Shown in pieces: positions 15,266-62,731 of a stretch of DNA of 64,000 bases (its first letter is position 1; the number at the start of each line of letters is the position of its first letter). A model generated the notes under the pieces. The model was not told the DNA's origin. It ran no database searches and saw nothing but the letters and a program-made list of their open reading frames with translations. The stretch is taken from assembly GCA_900772775.1 (NCBI GenBank), contig CAAGRW010000134.1, positions 6,866 to 70,865 of the forward strand, read 5' to 3'. The DNA comes from Candidatus Rifleibacteriota bacterium. GTDB taxonomy: Bacteria; Vulcanimicrobiota; Xenobia; Xenobiales; Xenobiaceae. Both the position numbers and the translations under genes were made by a program.

Positions 15266-16394
15266 TTAGACGACGTCGCTAGTTTGCGGCTCGCGGCCCA
15301 AGCGGGCTCGAGCTTGCAACCAACTGCGCATAAAGCCATTGATGTCGCCTTCCAGCACTGCGCCTACGTTGGCATTTTCAAAGCCGGTACGTCTATCTTT
15401 AACCATAGTGTAGGGTTGCATAACGTAGTTGCGGATTTGGTTGGCCCAGGCCGCCTCGCGATTTTCGCCCTTTACATTATCTAAAGTGTCTTGGCGTTGC
15501 TCGCGTTTAAGCTCTAAAAGTTTGGCTTTAAGCATGCGCATAGCCGTCTCTTTATTGGAATGTTGGGAGCGCTCGTTCTGGCAAGCGGCCACTGTGCCGG
15601 TAGGAATGTGAGTAATGCGTACCGCCGATTCGGTCTTGTTGACATGCTGCCCGCCTGCGCCTTGGGAGCGATAGGTATCTATTTTTAAATCTTCGGGGCG
15701 CAGCTCAATATTGAGCTCTTCAGCTAGCTCCGGCACTACTTCTACTTTAGCAAAAGAAGTGTGGCGGCGGTGAGCAGCGTCGTAAGGAGAAATGCGCACT
15801 AAACGGTGCACGCCGTGCTCGGAACTGAGCATGCCGAAGGGATAGAAGCCTTCTATAATGAGGCTGGCCGAATGGATGCCGTCTTCTTCGGCAGGCGAAT
15901 ACTCTACTAAACTTACTTTGTAGCCTTCACTTTCGGCCCAGCGCATATACATGCGCAAGAGCATTTCTGTCCAGTCTTGGGCGTCTACTCCGCCGGCTCC
16001 GGCATGAAGAGTAACAATAGCGGCCGCTTTATCGTAAGGGCCGTTCAGTAAAGAAATAGTTTCGGCTCGCTCTAAACGGTGAGTAAGCTCGTCATAATAG
16101 CGCTGGGCTTCGTCTATTTCTTCTTGATTGTCGGGCGTGCCCAACTCGGCGGCCACTTCGGCTTCTTCTAGCGCAGAATTGAGTTCGTGCCACTGTTGAG
16201 CTATCGTTTTGTATTGAGCCAGCTCTTGGGTGAGGCGTTGGACGGCCTCGTTATCTTCCCACACTTGGCCAGAGCCAAATTGGGCTTCTATTTCCTGAAT
16301 TTTGCGTTCGATTGTTTCCAGGTCAAAGATAGTCGCGCATGCGTTCGACGCGGGCGCGGGCTTCGCTTAAAGGCTCGGCAAATTGGGAGAGCAT
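15266..16394 (-). CDS. prfB: Peptide chain release factor 2, expressed through a programmed +1 frameshift
   Basis: ORF0 (minus strand, from the ATG at 16394) reads MLSQFAEPLSEARARVERMRDYL and then TGA, within the canonical CTT TGA C shift site (plus coordinates 16322..16328). The +1 frame continues DLETIERKIQEIEAQFGSGQVWEDNE... into the 332-aa ORF. That ORF contains the SPYDAAHRRHTSFA (SPF-type motif variant) and GGQHVN (GGQ) motifs. Confidence 0.9.
16322..16328 (-). other. RF2 autoregulatory +1 frameshift site (CUU UGA C)
   Basis: Plus-strand GTCAAAG is the reverse complement of CTTTGAC. It sits 23 codons after the ORF0 start. Confidence 0.85.
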
Positions 16395-30855: not shown

Positions 30856-33455
30856 CGCTCGATATCCTCCTGTAATTTGCGTACCGCTTCGGAACTTTCA
30901 CAGGCTAAAGCCCGCTCGGCTAATTGGCGGCATTCTTCCAGGCCAACTTGACGGATTCTGTCTTTGACGGCAGGAATGGCTGGAGCCGCTACGCTAAGCT
31001 CGTCTACGCCCAAGCCGACCAAAATAGCCGTAGCTTGCAAGTCACCGCCAATACCGCCGCAAATACCCACCTTGCGATTATGTTTGTGAGCTCCGTCGAC
31101 CGTCATTTTAATTAAGCGCAGAATAGAGGGATGGAGACTGTCTACCAAGTTGGCCAATTGAGGATGGCCGCGGTCGATAGCCGTAGTGTACTGAGTTAAA
31201 TCGTTAGTACCGATAGAGAAGAAGTCTACTTCTTTGGCTAAAGTTTCAGCCATTAAAGCGGCGGCGGGTACCTCGACCATAATGCCCAAAGGCACTTTTA
31301 CGCCTAAATTTTTGCATTCTTCATCGAAAATGGCTCTAGCTTGGCGATATTCGCCGATAGTAGTAACCATAGGTAACATAATTTGCAACTTGGCAAAGCC
31401 TGCTGCTCTTAAAATGGCGCGGAACTGAGTGCGCAATAAATCCGGACGCAGCAAAGAAATACGCAAACCGCGTTCGCCTAAGAAAGGATTGGCTTCTTGG
31501 GGAATAGGCAAATAAGGCAAAGGCTTGTCGCCGCCTACATCTAAAGTACGAATAATTAGCGTAGCTTTAGGGCCCAAAGTGCGGGCAATTTGGCCGTAAA
31601 TATCGGCTTGTTCATCTTCGGTAGGCGGAGTAGTGCGGGCTAAGAAGAGGAACTCGCTGCGCAAAAGGCCTACACCGTCTGCGCCTAAAGTGACCGCTTG
31701 TTCGGTATCGGCTACCGAGCCTACATTGGCAGCTACTTCTACGAGGCGACCGTCGGTAGTTTGGGCCGATTCTTTGGCTTTTTCTAATAACTGGCGGCGA
31801 CGTTCTTGCTGAAGTTTGAGCTTTTCTTTAGCTTCTTGGTAGCGCTTGTCGTCCGGATTGAGCTCCAAAGTGCCTTTGCTGCCGCTTAAAATGGCCCGCG
31901 TGCCGTTAGCTATAGTGAGAGCTCGAGCAGAAATGCCTGCCAAAGCTGGCAAATCGAGCGAACGCGCTAAAATAGCCACGTGGGAAGTAGAGCCGCCCAA
32001 CACGGTGGCAAAGCCGACTACTTTAGAGCGATCTAAAGCGGCCGTATCCGAAGGAGTTAAATCTTCGGCAATAAGGATCGTATTTTCGGGGAAGTTGTGA
32101 ATAGTGGGAGCTTCACCCATAAGCAAGCGCAGCACTCTTTCACCCACGTCTTTTAAGTCGACGGCGCGGGCGGCCATCAGTTGGTGGCTGAGCTGCGCTA
32201 AACGCTCCGCTTGGCCGGTGTAGGCTTGTTTCCAACTGTAAGCGGCGCTTTTACCTTTAGCTATGCCAGCTTCGGCTTGCTCAATTAAATCGGGATCGTC
32301 TAAAAGCTCGCGGTGAGCGGCGAAGATACCGGCTTTATTAGGATCGGCTTTGGCCTTCATGCTGACTTCTAAAAATTCCAGCTCATTTTGGCCTTTTTTC
32401 AGAGCTTCGCGCAATTTTTGCAACTCTTTTTCCCGGCCTTGGCCTTCTTCTTCTACTTCATATTCGGCTCGTTGCATTTGATAGATGCGCCCTACAGCTA
32501 AGCCTGGAGAAGCAGAAACTGCGTGCAACAAATTGTCTGTATCGGGAGTTTGTGGGTTGGGCAAAGCCGGAGTTAGAGGGCCGGGAGTAATCATGGGCTG
32601 GGCTTGCACATTTATATCGGGCCTGGCACTTACTCCAGAAACGCCGGGAACTTCAGGCTTTTCGCCTAAACCGCTGGCCAAAGCTTCACTTAACGCATCT
32701 AAAGCTTCTTGGGCCTCTTCGCCGCTAGCTCTAAAGCGCACTACTTCGTTGTGCAGCACTTGCAAGCTCATTAAAGCTACGACGCTTTTGCAATTGGCAA
32801 ATTGCTCGCCGCGTACAATTTGCAAGTTAGCTTTAAACTTTTTGGCTAAATTGGCTAATACGGCAGCTGGACGAGCATGCAAGCCTTGAGGATTGGGCAC
32901 CACGATAGGTTCGGACATTAAGCTCAGGCCGGAGGTAGTCTCTTTATCTTCTTCTTTTTGAGCTAAAGTGGCACTGATAAGCAGATCTTGACCAGCTTTC
33001 TTGTAGCCTGGTTTTATTTCTAAATTGCTGACGGCTTCGGTATTGGTAATTAAAACTAAAGTAATCAGGCTGCGGGCCTTTTCAGCGATAAGTCCTGCGT
33101 CAAAAGCAATAAGCTCTTGCCCTTTTTCCACCGAATCGCCTACTTTTACTTTGGGAGTAAAGCCTTCGCTCTTTAAGGCTACCGTGTCCAAGCCTATGTG
33201 CATAAGCACTTCCAAACCTGAAGGAGTCTCCAGAGTTAGAGCGTGACAGGAGGGATGAATTTGCTTGACGACTCCCGGACAAGGGGCCAACAAGACTTCT
33301 GAAGTTGGGTCTATAGCTACGCCGTCGCCTACCATTTTACCGGCGAAAACCGGATCGGGTACGCGTTCGAGCTCTACAGTCTGTCCCGAGAGGGGAGCAT
33401 ATAAAGCGACAGCATGATTGCTCACGTGAAACAGCACACTCCAAAAAAATATCAA
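30852..33455 (-). CDS. ptsI: Multiphosphoryl transfer protein: EIIA(Glc)-HPr-Enzyme I fusion
   Basis: N-terminal EIIA-Glc ([19 protein letters not shown]...[29 protein letters not shown]), then HPr ([15 protein letters not shown]...), then EI ([24 protein letters not shown]-utilising). It overlaps ptsG by 4 nt. The start codon is uncertain (TTG at 33455 or a GTG 30 nt downstream). Confidence 0.85.
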
Positions 33456-48338: not shown

Positions 48339-48881
48339 TTAAGCGATGCGCACACCGTCTGTGTTGTAAATACCTTCGCTGATAGTAGAGGGACCATTAA
48401 GGAACATTTCTACTCCGGCCACTTGTTCAGTTTGAGCATCGTCGACAGCTGCCGTAGAGCTTACGGAAGAGGAATGCAAATCGGAAGGTTGCTGTATATC
48501 ATCTATCAGAGCGATAGTACCTAAGCTGGAAACAGCTAATTCTTTAACTTGGTTCTGCGTATTGACAGAAGCTGAAGAAGCATCGGCAATTAAGAAACCG
48601 TCAAATTCACTGCTGGTTAAGCCGTGCTTGGCGGAAGCTGTAGCCGAAGTAAAACTATCAACACTTACAGAGGGCTTAGAATCTGTTTGCTCGGAGGCGA
48701 GAGTAACGGACTCCAGCGAATCGGTATAGGTGAGATCCGAACCGATATTTACTTGATCAAGCTGCTGCTCGGGTTCGACATTGACGGAGGGGCGCTCGCG
48801 CTGAGCGGAAGCTGCTTGACCGTAGCTTAAAGCGCCCGCAGAACGGACGGTGTGCATTCCAGCCAAATTGATCTCGTTCAT
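48339..48881 (-). CDS. Ser/Thr/Asp-rich hypothetical protein
   Basis: GGAGGG RBS 8 nt before the ATG at 48881 (MNEINLAGMHT...). Low-complexity S/T-rich body. Confidence 0.5.
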   Translation of the reverse strand: MNEINLAGMHTVRSAGALSYGQAASAQRERPSVNVEPEQQLDQVNIGSDLTYTDSLESVTLASEQTDSKPSVSVDSFTSATASAKHGLTSSEFDGFLIADASSASVNTQNQVKELAVSSLGTIALIDDIQQPSDLHSSSVSSTAAVDDAQTEQVAGVEMFLNGPSTISEGIYNTDGVRIA

Positions 48882-49345
48882 ATAAATAACCCTCCAAAGG
48901 CTGAGCCCCATTTCTCAGGGTGCAGCCACAAAGACGCAGTCTCGCTGCTTACTTAATCCTTACTCGGAAATATATCTGAAAGTACCCGACAGCCAAACCA
49001 AAAGAGCTGCCAGGCCTATCAAAACTTCAGCCATGCCGAAAGATAACAAACTCAAAAAAGCTTTAAAACAGTAGTTAAAAACTTCAAATGAGAGCTTTTC
49101 GGGCATAGCCGAAAGTAAAATTCTGTTCTTTTGGTTCGCAAGGATATATTAGAAACAGGAGCTCTTAAAGTCAACGAACATAATGGGCCGTTTTGTTAAA
49201 ATCTGGTAGGAAAGGCTGTAAAGGTTTTGCCGCTCAAAAAATAGAAAATCGGCCTCGCGTTTGGTTGTGCAGCCCAGAATAGTTCTTAAACTTTTTTTTC
49301 GGCTGAAAGCAGCCAATTCTTTCGTATTCGGAGAAGGCTAAAATT

Positions 49346-49660
49346 ATGGAGATTACCACTAAGATCGTCCCTCAACCCGAAGTCGGAGGCAATGAAGTTA
49401 CTCTGGCTCTAAACGGGCGCTTCGGCAACAATTCCGCTTCCGAAGTAGAGAGTGCTGTTCAGGAAATTATCGGCTCGTGCCGCAGATTGGTTTTTGATTT
49501 TGCGGGTGTGGATTATATTTCCAGTGCCGGTTTGCGCGTTTTACTTATGGCCAAGAAAAAATTGGGCTCGGGGGTTGAAGTTAGCGTAATTAACGCCAAT
49601 GATGTTGTCAAAGAAATTTTCGATATTTCCGGCTTTTCCAAAATATTGCAAGTTCAATAA
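49346..49660 (+). CDS. STAS-domain anti-sigma-factor antagonist (SpoIIAA/RsbV-like)
   Basis: 104 aa. ...DFAGVDYISSAGLRVLL... carries the phosphorylatable Ser in its canonical position. Confidence 0.8.
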   Translation: MEITTKIVPQPEVGGNEVTLALNGRFGNNSASEVESAVQEIIGSCRRLVFDFAGVDYISSAGLRVLLMAKKKLGSGVEVSVINANDVVKEIFDISGFSKILQVQ

Positions 49661-49690
49661 ATAAGTACCTAAGCTCCTAAACTGAACAAT

Positions 49691-52012
49691 ATGCGCACCG
49701 CTATTCGCAAAAAGCTCTTAATCGTAGTTTCCTTGGCTGCTTTGATTGTCTCTTGGCTGGCTTTGGATTTGGTAGATCGCAACTGTCGCTTGCACGTGAG
49801 CAAGCTATTTAATGAAGCGGGCAAAGATACAGCCCGCGCTTTAGCTACTAGCGATAAACGCGCCTATGATATGCGTTCGAGCATGATGCATACGGTGCTG
49901 ACTTCTTTGGAAACTGTCACTGAAGTAGTCAATTCTTTTCCCGGCATAGAAAAGAATCACGCTGCTTTGGACGGCTTGCGCAGCAGTTTAGGTATCAGTC
50001 GTATCGATATTATCGATGCGGCTCAATGGAAAATTATAGTTAGCTCCGATAAGCAATTAGATGGAGCCCCTGTACAAGTTGACAGGCCCGCCCCTTTGCA
50101 AGATAGCAATCCCGATTTTAGCGCTTTTGTCAGCAGTATGGGCAGTTACCATCCGGTCGATTATGTTACCGATAGACACAATCGCGACTTGTTGCTTTTC
50201 TATAGCGAACTTAAGCGCAAAGGGCGAGTCTTGCGTTTGGGCTTCAATGCCGTCAGTTTTAAAAATACCTACAATGTGGCCGAACACGAGTTGGTAACAG
50301 GCAGCTTGCCGCTGGGCGAGCATGGCGGCGTCGATGTCGTTTCCCAAAATGGTGTGATCGTCAATTGCGTAAATAAAGAATTTATCGGCACGCCCTTTGC
50401 CGAAGTCTACCCAGGGCTTGATTTCAGCCATTTCAAGGCCGGCCAATTGATAAAAGCCAACCGTCGCGGCACGGTGAGCTATTGCACTTTCTACACTACG
50501 CAATACGGCTACATTATGGTGCCCTTTATGCCTGCGGCGGAAGTTTATGCCACGCGAACGACCATTTTGGAAGTTATGCTTACCGGCTTTTTGATTATTT
50601 TGGCCGCTATCTTTTTTAGCACTTCCCGCATTGTCAAAAAGGTTATTCTGGATGGTTTAGAGCGTATCAATGCTTCCTTAGCCAAAATTGAAGCTGGCGA
50701 TTTGGAAGAAAAAGTAAACGAAACGAGTTATCCTGAGTTTTGTGTGCTAAGCCAAGGTATCAATTCCACAGTAGATGCTTTGAAGCAACTTATGGAAAGC
50801 CAGTCGGCCTACGACGCCGAGCAAATGAATTTGGCGCGCACTATTCAGCTCTCTTGTTTGCCCAAGTTTTTCCCCACTTATCCCGAGCTTAAACAGCTTG
50901 ATCTTTGTGCTCGTACTTCACCAGCTCAAGAAGTAGGCGGAGATTTTTACGATTATTTCCGCATTAAAGACAATTTGTATTGCGTCATTATTGCCGATGT
51001 TTCCGAACATGGCATTCCGGCCGCTCTAATGATGATGACAGCCAAAACTGCTTTGCATGATGCTATTTTATCTGGCGATACGCTCGAACACTGTATGGAG
51101 AGTGTCAACTTCTCACTGTGTGAAAATAACAGCACTTGCATGTTCGTGACCGCTTTTGCCGCTACCGTCAATACCGAAACTGGCGAATTTCGCTTTGTCA
51201 ATGCTGGCCACTGTCGCCCTCTGTTGCGCCGTCGCGACGGCATTTGGCATTCGGTAAAGATTGGCTCCGGCATGGTGCTTGGCGGTATGGACAATTTGAG
51301 CTATTCGGCCGAGAGTTGGTTCCTGGAAGAAGGCGATCGTGTTTTCTTATATACAGATGGCGTTACCGAAGCTATTAACGAAAAAGGCGAGATGTTCGGT
51401 TTGGGTGGCTTAGAGGTAGTATTAAATCGCCCTGCTTGCGACAATTACGATCCCGCTTCTCTAATAAATTTAGTGCACGACGAATTGGACAAGTTTGCTC
51501 AAAATTCCACTTTGGAAGATGATGTGACTATGGTGGCCTTGGAATATTATGGCCGCCGCCCTCGGGCTCGTTTCCTTCAGGTGCCGGCTTTAAGTGAAAA
51601 GTTGGACGATGTACTCAACTTTATAGACAATTTGTTGGACGAAACAGAACTTGATTTAGAAACTCTCAAACAAGTAAAAAGCTCTATGGCTACTGCAGTT
51701 GACGATATTTTTACCAATATCGTGAATTATGCCGGCCAGGGACGTCAGGAAACGGTCACTGTCACTGTGCGAGCCGAAATTCAAGCCTATCCTTACCAAT
51801 TGGTCGTGCACTTTATAGATAATGGCCATCCTTACGATCCTACGGCTGTTTCCGCTCCCAATGTAGATTTAGGTTTCCAAGAGCGTTGCTGCGGCGGTTT
51901 GGGCATATTCTTGGTGAAAAAGCTGACCGATCAAATGACTTATCGCTATACGGAAGGTTGCAACATCCTTCGTTTAGCTAAAAAATTAGAAAAAGCGGAA
52001 GAAAAAAACTAG
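49691..52012 (+). CDS. Membrane sensor: TM / extracytoplasmic domain / TM, then HAMP, a PP2C (SpoIIE/RsbU-type) phosphatase, and a C-terminal GHKL (RsbW/SpoIIAB-like) serine-kinase domain
   Basis: HAMP: LERINASLAKIEAGDLEEKVNETSYPEFCVLSQGINSTVDALKQL. PP2C: QEVGGDFYDYF...VIIADVSEHGIPAALMM...FLYTDGVTEA. HATPase_c: ...VRAEIQAYPYQLVVHFIDNGHPYDP...CCGGLGIFLVKKLTDQMTY... Confidence 0.75.
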   Translation: MRTAIRKKLLIVVSLAALIVSWLALDLVDRNCRLHVSKLFNEAGKDTARALATSDKRAYDMRSSMMHTVLTSLETVTEVVNSFPGIEKNHAALDGLRSSLGISRIDIIDAAQWKIIVSSDKQLDGAPVQVDRPAPLQDSNPDFSAFVSSMGSYHPVDYVTDRHNRDLLLFYSELKRKGRVLRLGFNAVSFKNTYNVAEHELVTGSLPLGEHGGVDVVSQNGVIVNCVNKEFIGTPFAEVYPGLDFSHFKAGQLIKANRRGTVSYCTFYTTQYGYIMVPFMPAAEVYATRTTILEVMLTGFLIILAAIFFSTSRIVKKVILDGLERINASLAKIEAGDLEEKVNETSYPEFCVLSQGINSTVDALKQLMESQSAYDAEQMNLARTIQLSCLPKFFPTYPELKQLDLCARTSPAQEVGGDFYDYFRIKDNLYCVIIADVSEHGIPAALMMMTAKTALHDAILSGDTLEHCMESVNFSLCENNSTCMFVTAFAATVNTETGEFRFVNAGHCRPLLRRRDGIWHSVKIGSGMVLGGMDNLSYSAESWFLEEGDRVFLYTDGVTEAINEKGEMFGLGGLEVVLNRPACDNYDPASLINLVHDELDKFAQNSTLEDDVTMVALEYYGRRPRARFLQVPALSEKLDDVLNFIDNLLDETELDLETLKQVKSSMATAVDDIFTNIVNYAGQGRQETVTVTVRAEIQAYPYQLVVHFIDNGHPYDPTAVSAPNVDLGFQERCCGGLGIFLVKKLTDQMTYRYTEGCNILRLAKKLEKAEEKN

Positions 52013-52030
52013 CCGCACTTTGTCAAAAAT

Positions 52031-53323
52031 ATGGCTTCAGAAGATAATTATAACGAAAACAATGTCTCTCCCTTGACGGCGGCTTTGCTTACTTTGCTTA
52101 TTGGAGGCTTAGTCTGGTTGGGAGCTTCATTTTTTGATAATCTCACCAATTATGGCAGTCAGCCCCAGCCTGATCCTGTCAATTTGATGGCTTCGGGCAA
52201 TACTGAAGAAAATTTCTATAGTCCTGGACGGGCCAAGAGACGAGCCAATTTTTTCTTGCGCCGTCAAGGCGACGAAGCAGAAATGTCCTCTGCAGAAAAA
52301 GAACTTTTGGAAGAAGAAGATCGCACTAAAGAGCGCGATAAAGAAGATAGAGAAGAAGCTAGGCAAGGGCAAAATAGCAGCTCCGGTAATGACGACTTAG
52401 CTCAATCTCTCCAAGCTGTGCAATCTTCTGGAGCCGGTTGGGGAGAAGGTGGAGGGACTACTTCCGCTATTAGTCCTGTTTCTCCCGACGGTTTGAAACT
52501 TTCCGGCATTATGTTGGGTAGCGGCTCTGGCATTGCCGTTATCGAATATAACGGCACTTCCTACACAAAATCGGAAGGGCAAAAGATTGGCCGTTACACT
52601 GTGTCCAAAATTCTTTCTGACCGGGTAGTTGTAGAAGATGGAGTCAACAATTTTACTTTGGGGCTTAGCTCTTCCGGAAGTTCCGATTTAGCTTCTTCGG
52701 CAGGCGCAAGCCTTTCTTCAAACGGCCATCCTGTTTTGCCCGATCCCGGACAAGTGCCGCCACCTTCAGCACCGGTAGTAAAAGCCAAAACTGCTTTCAA
52801 AAATGAAGCTTCCTTAGCGCCTTCAGCTCTTTCAGAATACGAAGAAGAAAATGTTGAAACTGCCTCCGGAAATGCGTCTTCAGTGCCTGTGCCCAGCAAA
52901 ATTGATGTTTACGATTTAGCTCAAGAGCGCCGCGCCGAAGAAGAAAAAAAAGCTGACAGTTTGTATGCGCCTAAGGGAGCGGCCAAGGCTAAAGTAAAAT
53001 TGCCTAAAGCTAACCCTACGCCTGTGCGTCCTACTCGCGAAGAAATTGAAAAATATTTGCAGCGCGGCGCGGCCATCATTTCTGAAATTAAAGTGCAACC
53101 CGATGCCAGCGGTTTAGGCGTCAAAGTTAAGTTTGTACAAGAAGATAACGTATTGCACCGTTTAGGCATAAAAGATGGCGACGTTATCACCAGAGTAAAT
53201 AATAAAACTATTTTAAATAGCGAAGAATTGTTTAATTCAGTGCTCAATATTAGCGAAATGCCTTTCGTCAATATTGAATACAAACGCCAAGGCCAAACTG
53301 ATACTTTAATTTACGATTTATAA
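52031..53323 (+). CDS. gspC: GspC-like T2SS inner-membrane protein (TM, HR/PilP-like domain, C-terminal PDZ-like domain)
   Basis: TM LTAALLTLLIGGLVWLGASFF. HR-like LKLSGIMLGSGSGIAVIEYNGTSYTKSEGQKIGRYTVSKILSDRVVVEDG. C-terminal GVKVKFVQEDNVLHRLGIKDGDVITRVNNKTILNSEELFNSVL (PDZ-like). Confidence 0.55.
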   Translation: MASEDNYNENNVSPLTAALLTLLIGGLVWLGASFFDNLTNYGSQPQPDPVNLMASGNTEENFYSPGRAKRRANFFLRRQGDEAEMSSAEKELLEEEDRTKERDKEDREEARQGQNSSSGNDDLAQSLQAVQSSGAGWGEGGGTTSAISPVSPDGLKLSGIMLGSGSGIAVIEYNGTSYTKSEGQKIGRYTVSKILSDRVVVEDGVNNFTLGLSSSGSSDLASSAGASLSSNGHPVLPDPGQVPPPSAPVVKAKTAFKNEASLAPSALSEYEEENVETASGNASSVPVPSKIDVYDLAQERRAEEEKKADSLYAPKGAAKAKVKLPKANPTPVRPTREEIEKYLQRGAAIISEIKVQPDASGLGVKVKFVQEDNVLHRLGIKDGDVITRVNNKTILNSEELFNSVLNISEMPFVNIEYKRQGQTDTLIYDL

Positions 53324-53432
53324 AACGGGCCGCGTCGCTAGCAGCTTTGGGCCGCTACTCATTTAGGCTCACTCAAAATGGACGGGCTTTTTAGCAGGAG
53401 CCGCCCCTTGAAAGACAAATTACCTACGCCCT

Positions 53433-54722
53433 ATGGGTACGTTTTATAAGACAGCTCTCAGCCTGGCCGTTACAGCCGGCATTGGTTTCTCTCTCTGCGC
53501 TCCTTGTTTGGCCGAGCCTTGCGTTTCGGCTGAAGGACGTCTTGTAGCCGCTTCTTACGGCGTGAAAAAATACGATCGCGCTTCCAAAGCTAAAAAGGCG
53601 CCTAATTCAGCCAAGAAAAATATTGCACAAGATCAGTCGGTGCAAGCTTTAAACGAGATGCGTTTAGTCTCGCGTTGGTTTGCTGCTGCTTACGATATTC
53701 CGGCTCGCGTGCCCGAAGAAATGTTTTTAGCTGGCTATACCTATAGCGACGCTATTGTGGCTCTTTCGCTGATGGATGCGGGCGCTTCCTTAAATGAAGT
53801 ATTGGAGCAAAGGCGCAACCATCGCTGGGATGAAGTAGCCGCTTCAGTTGGTATCGAGCCTTCTTCTTTACCTAAGCCGGTCATCAAAGTAATGAATACT
53901 CAAAATGGCAATAGACCTTTAGAGTATGTCCATTTTACTCCCGATGTTCGCTCCGGCTTAGCTAGTCGTTTGCATTTGCCTTCTTTTTCTCCCACTGTGC
54001 CGGATCCCGTAGCTGTCGAACGTTTCCGTCTGTCTAAGAGCGATATTGCCAATATCAGAAAAGCCTTAGAAAATGTCAACGACTTAGATGAAGCCACTTT
54101 GCGCTTGCCTGCCGGTCGCTCTTTAAAAGTGGGCGATTGGGTCATTGCCGGCGTTCTCTCTAAATATAAGCCTTTCCCTATAGATACTATTCTCTCAGTT
54201 CGCACTGGCGAAGTAGTAGAGTGGGGCGATGTGGCCGCTATGTTTAGCGTCGATCCCAGCATTTTTGTAGAAGGCCCCTTGGCTCCCATTTATGGCGCTT
54301 TAGTCGAAGGTGAAAATTATGCTACTTTGTCGAGCTTGCGTCGCTCTTCTTATCCAGATGCCCTTAACAATATCTATGCCTTAAACAATGTAGAAGGCGC
54401 CGAGTTGCAAGCTTTGGGCTGGCTCATGAGTCTCTACTACAAAGAAACCGACGAAGAGAGGGCTTTACTCAATTCTTACGGCCTTTCTTTTGCCGATCAG
54501 GCTTTGTCTTTAGCTGTAGCTCGTATGGCTTTTGCCGATGTTAACGAAATCGCCAACCGTATTCGTCATGGAGCCAATTGGCAATATTTAATCGACTACT
54601 ATAAGTTAGACATGACCGGCCAAGATGTAGTGATGGCTGCTGCCGTAAGTCGCGACCAAGCTCGTTTCCCCGAAACTCCTTCGACAGATTCTAAGTCTGT
54701 GCGCAGTAAGCGCTTCAATTAG
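53433..54722 (+). CDS. Secreted hypothetical protein inside the T2SS-like cluster
   Basis: Signal peptide ALSLAVTAGIGFSLCAPCLAEP. 429 aa with no recognisable family. Confidence 0.5.
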   Translation: MGTFYKTALSLAVTAGIGFSLCAPCLAEPCVSAEGRLVAASYGVKKYDRASKAKKAPNSAKKNIAQDQSVQALNEMRLVSRWFAAAYDIPARVPEEMFLAGYTYSDAIVALSLMDAGASLNEVLEQRRNHRWDEVAASVGIEPSSLPKPVIKVMNTQNGNRPLEYVHFTPDVRSGLASRLHLPSFSPTVPDPVAVERFRLSKSDIANIRKALENVNDLDEATLRLPAGRSLKVGDWVIAGVLSKYKPFPIDTILSVRTGEVVEWGDVAAMFSVDPSIFVEGPLAPIYGALVEGENYATLSSLRRSSYPDALNNIYALNNVEGAELQALGWLMSLYYKETDEERALLNSYGLSFADQALSLAVARMAFADVNEIANRIRHGANWQYLIDYYKLDMTGQDVVMAAAVSRDQARFPETPSTDSKSVRSKRFN

Positions 54723-54730
54723 GAAAGACC

Positions 54731-55144
54731 TTGAACAGGCTGCTAACTAGAAAAAATAGTGAAAGGGGAGGCAAGCTGGGCTTTTCGCTTTTGGAAGTGC
54801 TCATTTCGTTAGGCTTGGTCTCTATGGTCTTCGGCAGCTTAATTGGGGGCTTTTGCCAGCATGTGCAGCGTGTCGCTCGCCTGGGCCCCTTCTATCGCAA
54901 TCTGATCGTGGCTTCCGTAGGTTTGGAAAAAAGCATGGCCAAGAGAAATGACGGCGAGACCGATTCTATAGATGATATTGAATATAAAGTCACCGTCGGA
55001 GCCATGCCTTCCGATCCGCGTATCGACCAGATAGAAAGCAAAGTTAGCAGCAATCGTCCGGGACATAGCGCTGTAGTTAAGGCTTATCGCTTGCGTCAGG
55101 TCAGTTCTGCTTCATCTTCTTCGGGCACTTCTTCCGGCACCTAG
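54731..55144 (+). CDS. Minor pseudopilin (GspI/GspH-like) with a type IV prepilin leader
   Basis: ...GGKLG|FSLLEVLISLGLVSMVFG: Gly-Phe cleavage site, Glu+5, hydrophobic helix. TTG start with AGGAAAG RBS. Confidence 0.65.
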   Translation: MNRLLTRKNSERGGKLGFSLLEVLISLGLVSMVFGSLIGGFCQHVQRVARLGPFYRNLIVASVGLEKSMAKRNDGETDSIDDIEYKVTVGAMPSDPRIDQIESKVSSNRPGHSAVVKAYRLRQVSSASSSSGTSSGT

Positions 55145-55162
55145 TCAGAAATTTTTTTATTC

Positions 55163-55966
55163 ATGTTTAAAGCCAGCTTCAGTGCAAAAAATACAGCCTT
55201 GCTTTTAAGACGACATTCCGGCGGCTTCACTTTGCTTGAACTTATGCTGGTTATGGGGCTGGCCACTTTAGTTTATTCACTGATTTCCTACATGACCATT
55301 CAGATGAATAATACGGTGCGCCATTCGCAAGTAGCTTTCAAACGCCAAGAATTGATTATCGAAACGGCTGAGCGTTTGCGCTGGCAATTGCGTTGTCTTT
55401 ATGATCGCGTACCGGAAAGCTCTTCTTCTGAAGCTCCTGCCAGCCATACCAATCCTCCCACTTTGCTTAAATCGGCTCTCTATGGCAAAAGCCTAGGTGA
55501 AAAAGGGAAAGATGTACTCCTTTTCAAGACTACCTATTTCCCTTTGCGAGTTAAAAACAGCGGTACTGCTGAAGTGGGCTACAAAATTATGAGCGATTCT
55601 TCCGGAAGCTTCTCTCTTACCGAGCCGGTAAAAACAGATGACGATAAGTTGCGCTCTCTGGAAGCTGCCGATTTTATTAGCTCTAATCAAAACGCTGAAA
55701 GTAAAAACTACTTGGCTTACCGGCAGTACCCTTGGGCCGATCCTTTGGGCTTACACGATGTTGGCGACGATAGTCAGGTGCCTTGGGAAAAGTTAAGCTC
55801 AGAAATTATCGGTATGGAAATACGCTTTTCCGATGATTTAGAAATTTGGCAGCAAGATTGGACAGGCGAAGGGGTGCCCAAGTGGGTGGAAGTTACTTTT
55901 GAACTTAAACGCGGCGAGCCTTTAGTCTTCATTACCGGCCCTGTAGTAGCGGCCGATCGCTGGTAG
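55163..55966 (+). CDS. Minor pseudopilin (GspJ-like)
   Basis: ...RRHSGG|FTLLELMLVMGLATLVYSLISY prepilin signal. The start is either the ATG at 55163 or the in-frame TTG at 55199. Confidence 0.6.
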   Translation: MFKASFSAKNTALLLRRHSGGFTLLELMLVMGLATLVYSLISYMTIQMNNTVRHSQVAFKRQELIIETAERLRWQLRCLYDRVPESSSSEAPASHTNPPTLLKSALYGKSLGEKGKDVLLFKTTYFPLRVKNSGTAEVGYKIMSDSSGSFSLTEPVKTDDDKLRSLEAADFISSNQNAESKNYLAYRQYPWADPLGLHDVGDDSQVPWEKLSSEIIGMEIRFSDDLEIWQQDWTGEGVPKWVEVTFELKRGEPLVFITGPVVAADRW

Positions 55967-55978
55967 GGGGCAACGATT

Positions 55979-57118
55979 ATGGTTTTAATGGCAGTTTTGG
56001 GAGCTATTTTGGTCGCTTTAGTTATTGCTGCCAAAATGAGCGAAGTGGGCGTCGACGCCCAAAACCTAATAAACTACACTTCAGCTAGAGAAAACAATTA
56101 CCAGATCGCTCGTTCGGCTGCCGAAATGGGCTTCGAGCTTCTTAAAGCCGACAATGGCGATACCGACAGCTTAAACGATATGTGGGCTGCTGGTTCCGTC
56201 ACTATGGAGTGGGAAGGCAAAAACGTTATCATCAGTATCATTGACGAAGAGAGCAAGTTTCCTCTCAGCGCTATGCAAAAAGCTCCTGATAATTGCGAAT
56301 ATTTGGAAAAAGGCTTGGTGCGTCTTTTTGAAAATGGCGGTTTGGGCTGCGGCGAAGAAGCCAAAGATCGCTTTCTCGATTGGGTAGATCCCGATTCTCA
56401 AAGGCGCAACCAAGGCGGCGAAGTTAGCGATTATGATGAACTGACTATAAAAGATGCTCCGGTCGATTCTTTGCAAGAAATTTTGAATTTGCCCGGTTGG
56501 GATAAAGGCCCCTCGTATGCTTCGGCCCGAGCTCAAAACAGTTTGCAAAGCGTTATGGGATCTGTTTCCGCTGGTAGTTCAGCTACTTTAAGCCAGGCGG
56601 CCGCCCAATCTTCAACCGAGAGCCAAAATACGGCTGCAAGCAATACCTCTGCCAACAACGGCCAATTTAGCAAGTTCGGATCTGACAATTCAAGCCAAAC
56701 TACTGCCAATTCAGAAGATGAAGGCTACAAATTAGATGTACCTTCAGCCCAAACTCAAGGCGGCACTGCCACTACTCCCTGGGAAGAATGGGTCAGCGTC
56801 GATTCTAATGGCAAAATCAATATCAATACCGCTCCCAAAGAAGTGCTTCTGGCTTTGGATGAAAGTATGAGCCAAGTGTTGGTAGATGAAATCGACTCTA
56901 AGCGCCGCTCTGAAGCTTTCAAAAAAGTAGACGATTTGCACAACGTTACCGGCATGGACGCCGATTTGCTTTTCCGTATCCAGGATTATTTGTGCGTTAA
57001 AAGTTCTACTTTTAGTATCGATGTAACGGTTCTGTCCACTCCCGGACGCATAAAGTTGCACAGTGTAGTCAGCCGTGAAAGCGGCGCTATAAAAATTTTG
57101 CGCTGGGAAATACGCTAA
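55979..57118 (+). CDS. gspK: GspK-like pseudopilin
   Basis: Non-canonical N-terminal hydrophobic segment AVLGAILVALVIAAKMSE and a C-terminal helix-hairpin-helix KININTAPKEVLLAL characteristic of GspK. TAGGGGG RBS. Confidence 0.6.
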   Translation: MVLMAVLGAILVALVIAAKMSEVGVDAQNLINYTSARENNYQIARSAAEMGFELLKADNGDTDSLNDMWAAGSVTMEWEGKNVIISIIDEESKFPLSAMQKAPDNCEYLEKGLVRLFENGGLGCGEEAKDRFLDWVDPDSQRRNQGGEVSDYDELTIKDAPVDSLQEILNLPGWDKGPSYASARAQNSLQSVMGSVSAGSSATLSQAAAQSSTESQNTAASNTSANNGQFSKFGSDNSSQTTANSEDEGYKLDVPSAQTQGGTATTPWEEWVSVDSNGKININTAPKEVLLALDESMSQVLVDEIDSKRRSEAFKKVDDLHNVTGMDADLLFRIQDYLCVKSSTFSIDVTVLSTPGRIKLHSVVSRESGAIKILRWEIR

Positions 57119-57416
57119 AAATTTCTTGGCGCTGGATCTTTTTGCCATTAGGCAAAAAATAGGGCAGGAAGGGAAACAATCGGGGAGAACCAAGGCCATG
57201 TAGAATAAAGTCTGCACGCCATATTGTTTAACTTTCTTTATATAACCAACTTCAGGTTCTCTTCACGGAAGTACATTTTTTTTACTATGTGGAGGAACTT
57301 GTTATCTTACATGGAAAAACCGCTGGAAATAAGGCTGATGTTCTCGCAAAGCATCTCCTTGAAGTAAACCCTACAAACTTTCAAAGGTTTTTCTCGAAAG
57401 GGATTTGTTACTAAAC

Positions 57417-58922
57417 ATGACTAACAAGAACACGTTTCGTTTTGCTACTTTCGCTGCAGTAGCCAGCTTAGGTTTAGGCTTGATGATCTCCGGCTGCGGT
57501 GATGGCGGCTCCACTACTCCTAACCCCTTAAACGCCAAATTCGGCCAAGTCACTTTCAACTACAACGTATTGGCTCAGACCACTGCTAGAGCCGATATCG
57601 CTGAAAATATCGCCACTGTAAAATACGTTTTCTTCGGTGTAGAAAATGGCGCTCGCTTCATGGAAGAGCCCGTTGCTTACAATTTCACTCACGGTGAAAA
57701 AGATGCCGAGACCGATGTTACCGTTAAGAACGTCAATCTCGATGCTTCCGGCGTAATCGCTGCCTACTACGACAAAGATGGCAACCTCGTTGCTATGGGC
57801 GAAGATGTTATCGAATTCGATGCCGAAGGTAAAGAAGTTGTCGAGACTCCCGAAGTAACCGACTTCGCTAACGCTACCTACAGCATGACCGCTAGCCAGT
57901 ACGTTATCGCTCCTAAGGACGAAACCGTTATCGGTCTTACCGCCGTTGCCGGTGACAAGACTTACAACGTAACTCCTTTCGTAACCATCAGTGGTATCGA
58001 CGAAGCTATCTTGGCTTATGTCCAGGATACCAACCAAGGCGCTACCTACCAGGGCGCTGAGTACGGCACCATCGCCGCCAACACCATTAAGGCTACTGTA
58101 AACGGCACCGAGTATGCTATCGACAAGCCCATCTACGTAACCGACCAGACCCCCAACGCCATCAAGATTGTGGCCGACCAGGTTGACGGTAAAGACGTAA
58201 CCACCGTTGCCGCTACCGAAGAAGCCAACGAAGCCCTCACCGTAGTATTGGCCGGTGAAAAGAGCATTCTCGCTAACGAGAAAGCCGTAGAGCTCACTGC
58301 TGAAGGCAAAGACGCTCTCTACTATGCCGTAAACGAGCAGCCTATCGCCGTTATCGCTACCGGTTACACCAACGTAGAGGGTAAAGGCCCGCAGCCCGAA
58401 GGTATTGAGAGCGAAATCGAAGACCTCAGCAAGATCACCCTCGTTTCCGGCACCGAAGCTACCGCTAAGGCCGAAGGTTTGAACCTCATCGCCGCTGCCG
58501 AAGGTAACACCGTCGTCACCGCTACTTACAAAGTAGACGACGAAACCACCGTCGAGAGCACCAACAAGTTGGACGTCAAAGTTGTCGGCGCTGACGAGAA
58601 CCTCGCTTTCTCCAACACTGAGACCAAAGCTTTCATGACTGATGTCAAAGTAGACGCTGAAAAAGACCAGACCTTCACCATGGCTGTTGCCGGTAAAGCT
58701 ACTTTAGACGTAGACGCTACTTCTTACGTCAGCGCTCCTATCGAGTACACCGCTGAGGAGTATCCCGCCATCGTAGCCGTTACCGAAGAAGGTATCACTT
58801 ACGCTCAGACCGAGGGTAAGAACGAGTACACTCTCACCGTGGCCAAGACCGCTGCTCCTGAAGAAGCTGTCGAAATCACCGTTGATGCTACTTCCTTCGA
58901 CTCTATCGAAGTTACCAAGTAG
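57417..58922 (+). CDS. Surface lipoprotein, paralog 1 of a four-member tandem family
   Basis: Lipobox LMISGC, then conserved FNYNVLA, TVKYVFFG and AAYYDKDGNLVAMG motifs shared with the downstream paralogs. ATG at 57417; an in-frame TTG at 57405 is also possible. Confidence 0.7.
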   Translation: MTNKNTFRFATFAAVASLGLGLMISGCGDGGSTTPNPLNAKFGQVTFNYNVLAQTTARADIAENIATVKYVFFGVENGARFMEEPVAYNFTHGEKDAETDVTVKNVNLDASGVIAAYYDKDGNLVAMGEDVIEFDAEGKEVVETPEVTDFANATYSMTASQYVIAPKDETVIGLTAVAGDKTYNVTPFVTISGIDEAILAYVQDTNQGATYQGAEYGTIAANTIKATVNGTEYAIDKPIYVTDQTPNAIKIVADQVDGKDVTTVAATEEANEALTVVLAGEKSILANEKAVELTAEGKDALYYAVNEQPIAVIATGYTNVEGKGPQPEGIESEIEDLSKITLVSGTEATAKAEGLNLIAAAEGNTVVTATYKVDDETTVESTNKLDVKVVGADENLAFSNTETKAFMTDVKVDAEKDQTFTMAVAGKATLDVDATSYVSAPIEYTAEEYPAIVAVTEEGITYAQTEGKNEYTLTVAKTAAPEEAVEITVDATSFDSIEVTK

Positions 58923-59022: not shown

Positions 59023-59168
59023 GCTTTATTGTGTGAAGTTTTTTTTATAAAAAAGTAAAAAATGCCGAAAAAAGGACGTTTCTCTTTTGCTGGTGAAAAA
59101 AGCTAGGAGCGTCCGCTGTGAAGCGGTTCTGGCTATTTTTTCTAACGAAAGGTTTTGTCTTTTTACAT

Positions 59169-60842
59169 ATGCTTAACAAAAACACGTTTTGTTTTACTGC
59201 TTTTGCAGCGGTCGCTAGCTTAGGTTTAGGCTTATTCGTTTCCGGTTGCGGCGACAGCGGCTCTACTAGCCCCAACCCTTTAACGCCGACAACTAAAACT
59301 TATAAGGCCGTTTTTAATTACAATGTGTTGGCTGCTTCAACCGCTAAGGCTACTGATATAAAATCCGAAATCGTTACTGTCAAATATGCTTTTTATGGCC
59401 AAATTGACGGCCAAAACTTTATAAACGGCCCCGAAACCGATCCTTCTTATATTCAAACTTTTACTCACGGCGCAGAAGCTGTAGAAAAAGAATTTACAGT
59501 CAATAATGTCGATCCGCAAGCTACTTCAGTAGTGGCAGCTTACTATGACGCTGAAGGCAACTTAGTGGCTGTTGGTCAAAACGATATTTCTTTTAACGAA
59601 GATAAGGTTGCTATCGTAGCTGAACCTGAATTAGACGAAGTCGCTGACGATAGCATAACTTTTACCGCTAGCAAATACGTTATACCTTTGCAAGATACTG
59701 TGCTAATGTCTCTTAAAGCTATAGCTGCCAATAAATAATACGATTTGAGCGCTTTTGCCGAAATTAGCGGTATAGACGAGGCGGTGCTCGAAAAGCAAGA
59801 GGGCAGCTTAGAGGGCCTTACTTACAAGGGCATAAAATATGGCACTATTGAAGGTGGTACTATTACTGCTACTATTGGCAACACTAAGACCGTTATCGCC
59901 GATCCTATTTATGTTACCGACCAAACCCCCTCTGCTATTAGGGTAAAGCCTGCTTCAGTTGAGGGCCATGATATTTTTGCCGATAGTGATTACAATGGCC
60001 AAAAGTATTATATGCAATACGTTGACGAGAAGTGTTTACTTAGCCATTACCCGTACATAAAGTACCACGCCAATTCTTCCAAGAAACAATACGATCCAAT
60101 CTACTATTACATTAACGATCAACCTTTTATCGTTTATGCCACCGCTTACACTTCCGAAGATCCTACCAAAGGGCCTACTCCCACTATTAAAGATGGACAA
60201 ATTGGTATCAATATTACCGACGATCCTAACGTTAAGCTTTTAGATGTAGAATTTTCCGATCCCGAGTATATGAAAGCGCTTGGTTTCAAAATTCAGGCTA
60301 GTATAGTCGATAAAACTAAAGTGCATGCTAGTGGCGTAAACTCTTATAACTATGGTGACGATTACCAAATAACTGCCCAATATGGACAAGGCGACCAAGC
60401 TATAAAGAGCGATCCTATAAGGTTAATCGTCGAAGCTGAAGGCGTGAATAATGAAGTTATTCAGTTTGCGGCTATAGAGGAAGGCCAAGAACCTACTTTC
60501 TTTGTTCCTTATACTATCGAGGCTAAGAAAACTAAGATCGACTTTAAGATGAAACTTATGGGCATTTCTAGTGTGCTTATTAGCTTTGATGGAGGAGAAT
60601 CGGTGCCTTTTTATACCGATCCTTTGGAAATTCCCACCGATGTAATTGCACCTGATCAGTATCCTGATGTTGTCAAGCAAACTGAGTTCTCCAACTTGAT
60701 TTATAAACAAGATGAACCTGGACTTAATGCCTACACCTTAAAAGCTGAAGGTGAGCTGGAAGCTAATAAAATAGTTAAGCTTTACGTTGAAGATGTGGAA
60801 AGCGCTCCGCAATACTCTTTCATATCTATTACCACTTATTAG
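59169..60842 (+). pseudogene. Lipoprotein paralog 2, interrupted by an in-frame TAA at 59736..59738 (the ORF track splits it into 59118..59738 and 59745..60842, same frame)
   Basis: ...LKAIAANK * YDLSAFAEISGIDEAVL... aligns residue for residue with paralog 1 ...TAVAGDKTYNVTPFVTISGIDEAIL... across the stop. The 5' UTR and signal peptide are also homologous to paralog 1. Confidence 0.6.
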
Positions 60843-61117: not shown

Positions 61118-62731
61118 ATGGCTAAGTCCGCCTATAAGAATCTATACGGCTTTACTGCTTTTGCGGCTGCCGCCGGTTTGGCTTTGTGCTTAACTGCTTC
61201 CGGTTGCAGTGATGATACTTCCGATCCCAATCCTTTTGCGGCCAACCTCGGTACTGTCACCTATAACTATACTAAAGCCGTAGCTAAAGCTGCCGAGCTT
61301 CCTTCTACTGCTGTTAAAGCTACTTACACTTTTAGTGCCGGCGACGCTTTAGTCTATACTACCAGCGCTCCTATCGATACTATTACTGACGAAGAAGCCG
61401 CTGCTGGCGAATCGGTTGTCCGTACAGTTACTATCGAACAAGTACCTGCTAGTGCTGACAAAGTTTCCGTTATGTACTTTAATAGCGAGGGCACTCCCGT
61501 TGGTTTGGGCGTAGATAGCCTCGACTGGACTTCCACTACTACAGGTAAAGCCGCTGTTGTAGATCAGCCCGATGTCATAGACAGCACAACTATCGCTGCT
61601 CAAATTGTGGCCAAGCAAATTGTTCCCCAATTAGTAGCTTCCGCTCCTTGCGTAGACAAGGGCAACTACGTTTGGGTAAAGCCTGTTATGGCTTACACTA
61701 ATAGTTTAGGTCAGTCCGTCACCTTTGATCTTAGCGGTTTTGCTACCTATTCTTTGAATAAAAAATATGCCGATCAGCCCACTTATTTAGAAGAAGCCAA
61801 ATATGCCTATTATATGGGCAACAAGGCCGATTCTTTAGTAGCTGACGAAGACACTACCGAAGATGATACTACTGGCGAAGACACTGAAGCTACTGCTAAA
61901 GTAAGCGCTGCCGAAGCTACTCCCGGCTATTATAAAGCTGTTGAATATGGCCAGCAGGAAGTTAGCGTATCTCTGACCGGTTTGGAAGCTTTGGGCGAAT
62001 TGGCTCCTCTTACTGTCTATATTAGCGACGCCAAACTTGCTGGTGTAACTATCGATGGTGAAGATGATGTTTACGTTATCGCTCCCGATTACGATTTCGG
62101 TCAGGAATCTGTGACTGTCTCCGGCGTAAGCACTGCTGCTATTCCTTTTAATACTGCATCTTTCCAAGCTGTCGGCGAATATGTTGGCACCAACGGCCCT
62201 AGCTTCACTACCGATGCCAGCCAGTATGTCAACTGGAATATTGAACAGAGCGAAGGCGTTACCGCTACTCAAGACGCTTTGGGTCACTATGTAGTTACTT
62301 CCAAAGCTACTTCTTTGAAAGATATTGCTATAACCGCTCAGTCTAAAGGTACTTCCGACAAAGTCACTTTGCACTCTCTGCCCGCTAAAGCCGATATTAA
62401 AGTCAATATCGATAAAGAAATGACCTTGGATACCGTAGAAAATGGTACCGTTGAAGGTTTCTTCAAAGTTACGACTGCTGAAGGAGAAGTAGAAACTTCC
62501 AGCTTCAATGTTCCCAACTATGGTAAAGTCAAGATCAAAAATGTCGAGTCTGATAGAGCCGAGAGCAAACCTGAAGTAGCTAAAAATGAAAATGCTAACG
62601 GCATTTACATTAGTCTTGACAAAGAAGAGCCCGGAAACGAGGTTTCTTTCGACGTTATTTACAAAGATGGTAAGAAAATCAACAAGACAGTTTCCACTAC
62701 CGTAACTGTTGTTGACGTCGAAGATGTATAG
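61118..62731 (+). CDS. Surface lipoprotein, paralog 3
   Basis: GAGAGGA RBS. Lipobox LTASGC, with VTYNYTKAVA, ATYTFSAG and VMYFNSEGTPVGLG motifs homologous to paralogs 1 and 2. Confidence 0.7.
   Translation: MAKSAYKNLYGFTAFAAAAGLALCLTASGCSDDTSDPNPFAANLGTVTYNYTKAVAKAAELPSTAVKATYTFSAGDALVYTTSAPIDTITDEEAAAGESVVRTVTIEQVPASADKVSVMYFNSEGTPVGLGVDSLDWTSTTTGKAAVVDQPDVIDSTTIAAQIVAKQIVPQLVASAPCVDKGNYVWVKPVMAYTNSLGQSVTFDLSGFATYSLNKKYADQPTYLEEAKYAYYMGNKADSLVADEDTTEDDTTGEDTEATAKVSAAEATPGYYKAVEYGQQEVSVSLTGLEALGELAPLTVYISDAKLAGVTIDGEDDVYVIAPDYDFGQESVTVSGVSTAAIPFNTASFQAVGEYVGTNGPSFTTDASQYVNWNIEQSEGVTATQDALGHYVVTSKATSLKDIAITAQSKGTSDKVTLHSLPAKADIKVNIDKEMTLDTVENGTVEGFFKVTTAEGEVETSSFNVPNYGKVKIKNVESDRAESKPEVAKNENANGIYISLDKEEPGNEVSFDVIYKDGKKINKTVSTTVTVVDVEDV

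Follow-up and report, generated by a model that had tools for sequence, protein, structure and literature searches.

A membrane-anchored PP2C-RsbW fusion protein and its STAS neighbour as a probable partner-switching module in a Xenobia genome

We analysed a 64,000-nucleotide stretch of contig CAAGRW010000134.1 (GenBank assembly GCA_900772775.1, positions 6,866 to 70,865 of the forward strand; the window from here on), assigned to Candidatus Rifleibacteriota bacterium and placed by GTDB in the Vulcanimicrobiota, class Xenobia. Our subject is a gene at 49691..52012, called here the fusion gene, which joins an RsbU-like PP2C phosphatase domain and an RsbW-like GHKL kinase domain behind a membrane sensor, and the small STAS gene that directly precedes it. 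Domain profiles, structural models and the analogy with characterised systems lead us to read the two genes, with a probability of about three in four, as a fused-type partner-switching module that consists of an enzyme and its substrate. The idea of a bifunctional switch, put forward in an initial annotation of this DNA, is supported, but the class to which the switch belongs is known and very widespread.

Results

Architecture of the fusion protein

The features of the module are the following.

49346..49660, + strand: STAS gene, 104 amino acids, ending 30 bp 5' of the fusion gene
49691..52012, + strand: fusion gene, ATG start, 773 codons, encoding a dCache-transmembrane-HAMP-PP2C-RsbW-like protein
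49712..49774, + strand: first transmembrane segment (TM1), residues ~8-28, from a hydropathy scan; within model helix 2-82
49775..50554, + strand: extracytoplasmic sensor, residues ~29-288, double-Cache (tandem PAS-like) fold
50558..50626, + strand: second transmembrane segment (TM2), residues ~290-312, from a hydropathy scan; within model helix 287-334
50627..50815, + strand: HAMP-like helix-loop-helix, residues ~313-375, with a linker helix running on to residue 388
50897..51550, + strand: PP2C/PPM domain of the SpoIIE/RsbU type, residues ~403-620, from Pfam and the model
51569..51985, + strand: RsbW/SpoIIAB-type GHKL domain, residues ~627-765, from Pfam, a profile search and the model

The 773-residue open reading frame (ORF) thus runs from TM1 through a sensor of about 260 residues to TM2, the HAMP-like segment, the PP2C domain and the GHKL domain, and each element that the initial annotation had placed in this single chain is present. 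For the full-length protein, AlphaFold2 with an alignment of 56 sequences gave a model whose mean pLDDT (predicted local distance difference test score) is 82.7. Homologues of equal length and 55-94% identity occur in independent gut metagenome assemblies, among them a 92%-identical copy in a human gut assembly (locus L004), so the ORF is not a chance one. The closest named relative, at 86% identity, belongs to Candidatus Bruticola (Vulcanimicrobiota, class Xenobia).

An intact PP2C site

Pfam mapping places SpoIIE (PF07228) at residues 427-619, covering profile positions 2-191 of 192 with 146.2 bits (cutoff 25). Residue conservation was read from an alignment of the fusion protein with its 120 best database homologues (121 sequences). 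The four PP2C motifs, EVGG-D418-FYD, A-D436-VS, YT-D556-GVTE and D610-D611-xT, are invariant in this alignment and line up with the same motifs in the PP2C domain of Rv1364c (PDB entry 3ke6); D418, D436, D556 and D610/D611 are what we take, from established knowledge of the PPM family, to be the metal ligands. By Foldseek against the PDB, the PP2C fold matches Rv1364c, RssB, SiaA, SpoIIE and RsbX with a probability of 1.00. The best fold match is 3ke6, which holds the RsbU and RsbW domains of Rv1364c and is aligned across both catalytic domains (E 1e-18, 372 columns). The site is therefore intact, and dephosphorylation of a phosphorylated STAS protein is predicted from its motifs and by analogy with related phosphatases.

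A separate observation concerns Glu439 (51005-51007). This position of the DVSG(K/H)G motif is Gly in 107 of the 121 sequences and Glu in the clade of the query protein.

An RsbW-type GHKL domain

The C-terminal domain scores as HATPase_c_2 (PF13581) at residues 632-764 (50.5 bits, cutoff 27.4). All the GHKL boxes are present: the N-box as D672...N676, G1 as D710-x-G712 and G2 as G735-G-L-G738. Across the 121 sequences D710, G712, P717, G735, L737 and G738 are invariant and N676 (120/121), P714 (118/121) and G736 (113/121) nearly so. The initial annotation had named two outcomes that would count against it, a C-terminal stretch of some 130 residues unlike HATPase_c and the loss of the PP2C aspartates, and neither was found.

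A search of the PDB with the single sequence of the kinase domain returned SenB alone, at E 1.1, and a profile was needed to reach RsbW and SpoIIAB. With a profile built from 18 diverse homologues, the best PDB match is Bacillus subtilis RsbW (6m36, E 8e-9, residues 5-132 of 141), with SpoIIAB (E 5e-3) and histidine kinases (E 5e-3 to 0.8) behind it. The correspondence with RsbW can be followed motif by motif, in pairs of family and RsbW sequences: 'avdEifvNiasYay' and 'avsEactNavqHay', 'DsGkpYnP' and 'DeGdsFdf', 'GgLGiflv' and 'GGLGlylm'. Judged by sequence, the domain is a genuine RsbW-type unit, because the same domain also occurs as adjacent separate genes and as stand-alone proteins (see below). 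With its ATP-binding motifs intact, the domain is predicted to be competent as a kinase, the Asp at its catalytic-base position (Asp672, see Discussion) being a caveat.

The STAS partner

The gene directly upstream, which the initial annotation had proposed as the probable substrate, encodes a STAS protein: it scores 51 bits with PF01740 and 54.6 bits, against a cutoff of 53.45, with TIGR00377 (anti-sigma-factor antagonist). It aligns to SpoIIAA (1th8 and 1tid) and to RsfB (8ih8), and its Ser60, in DYIS-S60-AGLRVLL, falls in the column of the SpoIIAA phospho-serine, which is Ala in the 1tid variant. Of 66 STAS sequences taken from related loci, 65 have Ser in this column, within a strikingly conserved Y-I-S-S-A-G-L-R-V motif. 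Counts over related loci refer below to 83 loci, with the window added where stated. In these loci and the window, 29 of 56 fused ORFs have a small STAS gene on the same strand at most 300 bp away, and the pairing also holds for fusion homologues of 29-36% identity in other phyla. Motif and pairing, together with the analogy to known systems, make this STAS protein the probable substrate and partner of the fusion protein.

A second STAS-bearing protein stands beside the PP2C-kinase gene in many related loci, mostly of Bacillota. It has 390-425 residues and joins an N-terminal STAS domain carrying YISSAGLR to an APH phosphotransferase domain (PF01636). We found no description of it in the literature; it could be a second substrate or an output of such modules.

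L008:6559-7731, L024:5121-6383, L041:5613-6845, L047:1916-3196 and L050:2859-4049, + strand: STAS-APH proteins

Sensor, membrane segments and HAMP

Basic residues (R2, R6, K7 and K8) precede TM1, which places the N-terminus inside; with basic residues before TM1 and after TM2, residues 29-289 are assigned to the extracytoplasmic side. In the full-length model a single long helix (residues 2-82) comprises TM1 and a stalk, and the sensor then folds into two alpha/beta modules at residues 104-186 and 212-281. This long N-terminal helix and two PAS-like modules between transmembrane helices are the layout of dCache domains. Modelled separately (pLDDT 83.5), the sensor retrieves almost exclusively dCache ligand-binding domains as its top Foldseek matches in the PDB, over about 260 columns, with TM-scores of just 0.3-0.4 despite E values of about 1e-9. 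They include chemoreceptors and kinases (Mlp24, McpH, Tlp3, PctA/B and PscC), and the periplasmic domain of Chlamydia RsbU is matched as well (6mab, E 7.5e-7). No Pfam family, the Cache families included, matched the region even at E<=10, so the sensor is classed by fold alone. On the evidence of the models, its double-Cache fold class is well supported.

Of the HAMP domain that the initial annotation had called, the structural part stands and the sequence score falls short. The model has a clear helix-loop-helix, in which helix 287-334 carries TM2 into the first HAMP helix, a loop spans 335-347 and helix 348-388 forms the second HAMP helix and the linker. PF00672 reaches 16.8 bits on the whole protein and 21.3 bits on residues 313-402 alone (E 3.5e-4, profile positions 5-53 of 53), both below the cutoff of 25; several homologues of the fusion protein have a precomputed PF00672 match.

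How common the fusion is

The survey of the fusion that had been proposed found it to be widespread in many phyla, so that the unusualness implied by the initial annotation was not borne out. A homologue search returned 2222 significant proteins among 8000 candidates scored, and all of the 120 best carry both PF07228 and PF13581. Many of these 120 have a 5TMR-LYT membrane domain where the query has its Cache sensor; the PP2C-kinase core is thus joined to varied inputs. A scan of one genome per species gave at least 600 matches, and 596 of those obtained were confirmed. Its best 80 loci belong to Vulcanimicrobiota, Elusimicrobiota, Actinomycetota, many Bacillota, Bacteroidota, Spirochaetota, Synergistota, Lentisphaerota, Chloroflexota, Fibrobacterota, Ignavibacteriota, Alphaproteobacteria and Binatia; they are for the most part from gut or rumen assemblies, and one is in a complete Ruminococcus genome.

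Domain profiles built from the alignment detect 88 PP2C ORFs in the 83 loci and the window; the kinase domain lies in the same ORF in 56 and in a separate next ORF in 11, and was not detected in 21. In the 11 split loci (L032, L045, L046, L051, L064, L068, L069, L072, L073, L077 and L078) the RsbW-like ORF begins where the PP2C gene ends or overlaps that end, and frameshifts in draft sequence could account for some of the splits. Searched by itself, the kinase domain matches 9266 representative clusters at E<=1e-3, a number that falls to 1418 at E<=1e-10. Of 147 listed representatives, a set that excludes the query's own cluster and two earlier matches, 65 are stand-alone proteins of about 135-160 residues, whereas 42 carry the domain as the C-terminal part of a long protein, 36 of these 42 with the PP2C GGDxxD motif. 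By these comparisons of sequence, the fusion is a common fused-versus-split variant of the ordinary RsbU-RsbW gene pair. The exact dCache/HAMP-PP2C-HATPase_c_2 architecture was not found in the literature that we searched.

Gene neighbourhood

A GspC-like ORF of 430 codons begins 18 bp 3' of the fusion gene on the same (+) strand and opens a cluster of secretion-type genes.

52031..53323, + strand: GspC-like PDZ protein, from Pfam/NCBIfam
53433..54722, + strand: secreted or lipoprotein-like protein of 429 amino acids with a signal-peptide/lipobox-like N-terminus (…GFSLCAPC…)
54731..55144, + strand: GspI-like minor pseudopilin, from Pfam/NCBIfam
55163..55966, + strand: GspH/J-like minor pseudopilin, from Pfam/NCBIfam
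55979..57118, + strand: GspK-like minor pseudopilin, from Pfam/NCBIfam
57405-58922, 59118-59738, 59745-60842, 61118-62731 and 62857 to the window end, + strand: mutually paralogous proteins after the pseudopilins

All genes from the STAS gene through the pseudopilins share one strand and are spaced 6-110 bp apart, and the genes at 52031..57118 are possibly co-transcribed with the fusion gene. A promoter and terminator scan of 48800-55200 gave counts no different from those in shuffled sequence, so the operon structure is argued from gene spacing alone. Four genomes with fusion proteins of 55-94% identity (L001, L004 and L084/L085) preserve the STAS-fusion-GspC-pseudopilin order, which no other related locus shows. 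The protein at 53433..54722, for which neither Pfam nor NCBIfam has a family match, is likewise conserved in L001, L004 and L084, where its gene again separates the GspC-like gene from the pseudopilin genes. The divergent upstream housekeeping genes are equally syntenic in the same genomes, so the conserved order may merely reflect relatedness. Among the related loci no fusion homologue outside the query lineage (class Xenobia, Candidatus Bruticola) has secretion genes beside it. The sole family signal in the paralogous run is a weak, sub-threshold NCBIfam 'lipo-invert anchoring domain', and the run has relatives in L001.

Clustering of the neighbours in the 83 loci showed as recurrent only STAS, STAS-APH, ABC ATPases of a generic kind, a transporter and a histidine kinase, with no informative output gene among them. 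ABC ATPase genes recur near the module in nine loci. In a Lentisphaeria locus (L086:899-10537) the STAS and fusion genes stand between an amino-acid-type ABC transporter and genes for glycyl-radical enzymes.

Other genes in the window

The release factor 2 gene (~16393-15266, - strand) has the classical programmed +1 frameshift site, read as ATG…GAC TAT CTT TGA CCT at ~16393-16319 on the - strand, and because of this frameshift the ORF list shows the downstream frame 15266..16264 alone. An 866-residue phosphotransferase-system protein that unites EIIA, HPr and Enzyme I in one chain is encoded at 30852-33455 (- strand) and adjoined by an EIIC-EIIB permease gene at 28963-30855 (- strand). An 819-residue protein at 11572-14034 (- strand) has an N-terminal S-layer homology domain and no further recognised domain.

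Discussion

A signal-controlled, bifunctional kinase/phosphatase acting on the STAS protein, as the initial annotation had proposed, is the best reading of this set of domains when their sequences are set beside those of characterised systems. By analogy with these systems, a ligand would bind the Cache sensor and the signal would pass through TM2, the HAMP-like segment and the linker helix to alter the activity of the PP2C domain. The PP2C domain would remove phosphate from Ser60 of the STAS protein; the RsbW-like domain would use ATP to rephosphorylate it and would bind the STAS protein in one of its phosphorylation states. The phosphorylation state, set by the signal, would then decide the further partner of the STAS protein or of the kinase domain, and the final target could be a sigma factor whose gene lies outside this locus, or a target of another kind.

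Several observations weigh against parts of this reading. On the input side these are the lack of a Pfam match to the sensor, the low TM-scores of its fold matches and the sub-cutoff scores of the HAMP segment, and on the output side the rarity of sigma factor genes, which is taken up below. Another concerns the kinase domain. Four positions ahead of the N-box Asn, the query and its whole clade have Asp (Asp672, 51704-51706), where RsbW, SpoIIAB, 111 of the 121 aligned sequences and 138 of 142 close representatives have the catalytic Glu. Asp672 retains the carboxylate on a shorter side chain and may slow the kinase. In GyrB, another GHKL ATPase, the E42D change shortens the catalytic carboxylate and lowers activity. 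One could suppose that the kinase is weak or dead, that the domain mainly docks the STAS protein in an ATP-dependent manner and that the phosphorylation comes from another kinase, a view favoured by the restriction of Asp at this near-universally Glu position to the query clade. We consider this improbable: the ATP-binding motifs are all intact and conserved, Asp keeps the carboxylate, and no other RsbW-like gene was found in the window. Moreover, Asp672, like Glu439, is common to all 10 members of the clade (the query and nine homologues of 55-94% identity), and such conservation down to 55% identity suggests a functional site.

A much more distant prospect is that the protein is a hybrid two-component sensor whose C-terminal domain is that of a histidine kinase, its catalytic domain. 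The sensor-transmembrane-HAMP layout is typical of histidine kinases, and there is a weak HATPase_c match (17.2 bits). That match lies under its cutoff of 26.4, whereas HATPase_c_2 clears its own by a wide margin; a HisKA/DHp domain is absent, the PP2C domain occupying its place; the profile reaches RsbW at E 8e-9 and histidine kinases at 5e-3 or worse; and the neighbour that is conserved encodes a STAS protein and not a response regulator. We have rejected this interpretation.

The partner-switching module that we favour can be connected to more than one output. In the canonical arrangement the RsbW-like domain would hold a distal sigma factor, which the dephosphorylated STAS protein would displace; this is a rival for the output step only. 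The best profile match of the GHKL domain is indeed an anti-sigma factor, RsbW, the equivalent domain of CrsR and HsbR binds RpoS (PMC6482189), and in the distant homologue locus L003 a sigma-70 family gene lies directly 3' of the STAS and fusion genes (L003:7625-11293; 36% identity, in an assembly labelled Alphaproteobacteria). However, no sigma factor gene was found in the window, either with phmmer over all ORFs (one sigma-70 query, from L003) or with Pfam over the larger ORFs between 11.5 and 62.7 kb, and a jackhmmer screen of the 83 related loci found one within 4 kb of the module in L003 alone. Gene context thus leaves the sigma step unsupported, and several STAS systems are known to act without a sigma factor, on targets that include secretion and motility (PMC8256260). 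We regard an anti-sigma output as a serious contender that we would nevertheless bet against.

The STAS protein could instead be the output itself, acting on the downstream type II secretion-like or type IV filament-like machinery. SypA in the syp locus, BtrV with type III secretion and HmpV in the hormogonium motility and polysaccharide (hmp) locus are precedents for such an output (PMC8256260, PMC10120452), and the one-strand gene order with its 6-110 bp gaps in four genomes is in keeping with it. Against it stand the equal synteny of the divergent housekeeping genes upstream, the absence of secretion genes beside homologues outside the lineage and promoter and terminator scans no better than shuffled sequence. 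On balance we find an output of this type unlikely. Similarly doubtful is the more specific proposal that the Xenobia module is a dedicated, Cache-gated, post-translational regulator of the type II secretion-like machine in its own operon, with the STAS protein as output. If it were true, we would know of no earlier case in which a partner switch controls a type II secretion-type system (we found no report of one in the literature that we searched), and the control would respond to an extracellular ligand. A real secretion link would offer a testable case of ligand-gated, post-translational control of such a machine.

Fused PP2C-RsbW proteins are abundant and some have already been characterised; possible novelty is limited to the link with the secretion cluster and the clade-specific Asp672. 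Our survey indicates that gut and rumen anaerobes very commonly have the form with a membrane sensor, nearly always paired with a YISSAGLR STAS protein. Because a sigma gene is rarely adjacent and STAS-APH often is, the survey suggests that many such systems have unstudied outputs other than sigma factors.

One of the closest characterised systems is Rv1364c of Mycobacterium tuberculosis, which carries a PAS domain, PP2C, GHKL kinase and STAS domain in one chain and shares the order of PP2C followed by RsbW with the query; its 3ke6 structure is also the best PDB sequence match of the fusion protein (E 1.4e-13). Rv1364c reportedly acts on its own STAS domain as both kinase and phosphatase (PMC7693655; for the architecture see also PMC12143880). 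It is cytoplasmic, with a PAS sensor and the STAS domain fused C-terminally, whereas the query protein is a membrane protein with a dCache-HAMP input and its STAS partner is encoded by a separate upstream gene. HsbR of Pseudomonas aeruginosa and CrsR of Shewanella oneidensis, which combine a receiver, a PP2C domain and a kinase/anti-sigma domain in that order, sequester RpoS and, with reported kinase and phosphatase action, set the phosphorylation of the separate STAS proteins HsbA and CrsA on a conserved serine (PMC6482189). Like the query, they place an input domain, PP2C and then GHKL in one chain and have a separate cognate STAS gene. Their input is a receiver fed by a phosphorelay and their target RpoS, whereas the query has a transmembrane Cache-HAMP input. 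Since Pfam finds no receiver (Response_reg) in the fusion protein, we do not file it as their orthologue, and by analogy it would work as they do.

SypE of Vibrio fischeri is a dual serine kinase and PP2C phosphatase for the STAS-only protein SypA (PMC10120452). As in the query locus, a single kinase/phosphatase protein is accompanied by a STAS-only partner, in the case of SypE inside a locus for cell-surface export (PMC10120452, PMC8256260), and SypA itself is the downstream output, with no sigma antagonism (PMC10120452, PMC8256260). SypE differs in its kinase-receiver-PP2C order, its cytoplasmic location and its polysaccharide locus, where the query locus has secretion-system pseudopilins. 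RsbU of Chlamydia trachomatis resembles the query in being a membrane PP2C protein whose sensor is periplasmic and Cache-like; Chlamydia has its RsbW on a chain of its own (PMC11619594), whereas the query kinase is fused to the C-terminus of the phosphatase. The RsbU/RsbW/RsbV and SpoIIE/SpoIIAB/SpoIIAA systems of Bacillus subtilis have the same three modules and motifs as the query. In Bacillus these are three separate proteins with a sigma gene in the operon, and RsbU is activated by a partner protein, not by a transmembrane sensor (PMC12143880).

HAMP-linked PP2C phosphatases are one standard input type, for which a general linker-mediated activation mechanism has been proposed (PMC12143880), and the HAMP, long helix and PP2C layout of our model fits such control of RsbU-type phosphatases (PMC12143880). 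The present protein adds to the known fused PP2C-RsbW regulators a member with a Cache-HAMP input from an uncultured gut lineage (Vulcanimicrobiota, class Xenobia). What sets it apart from the characterised fusions is this dCache-HAMP input and the place of the module at the head of a type II secretion-like cluster.

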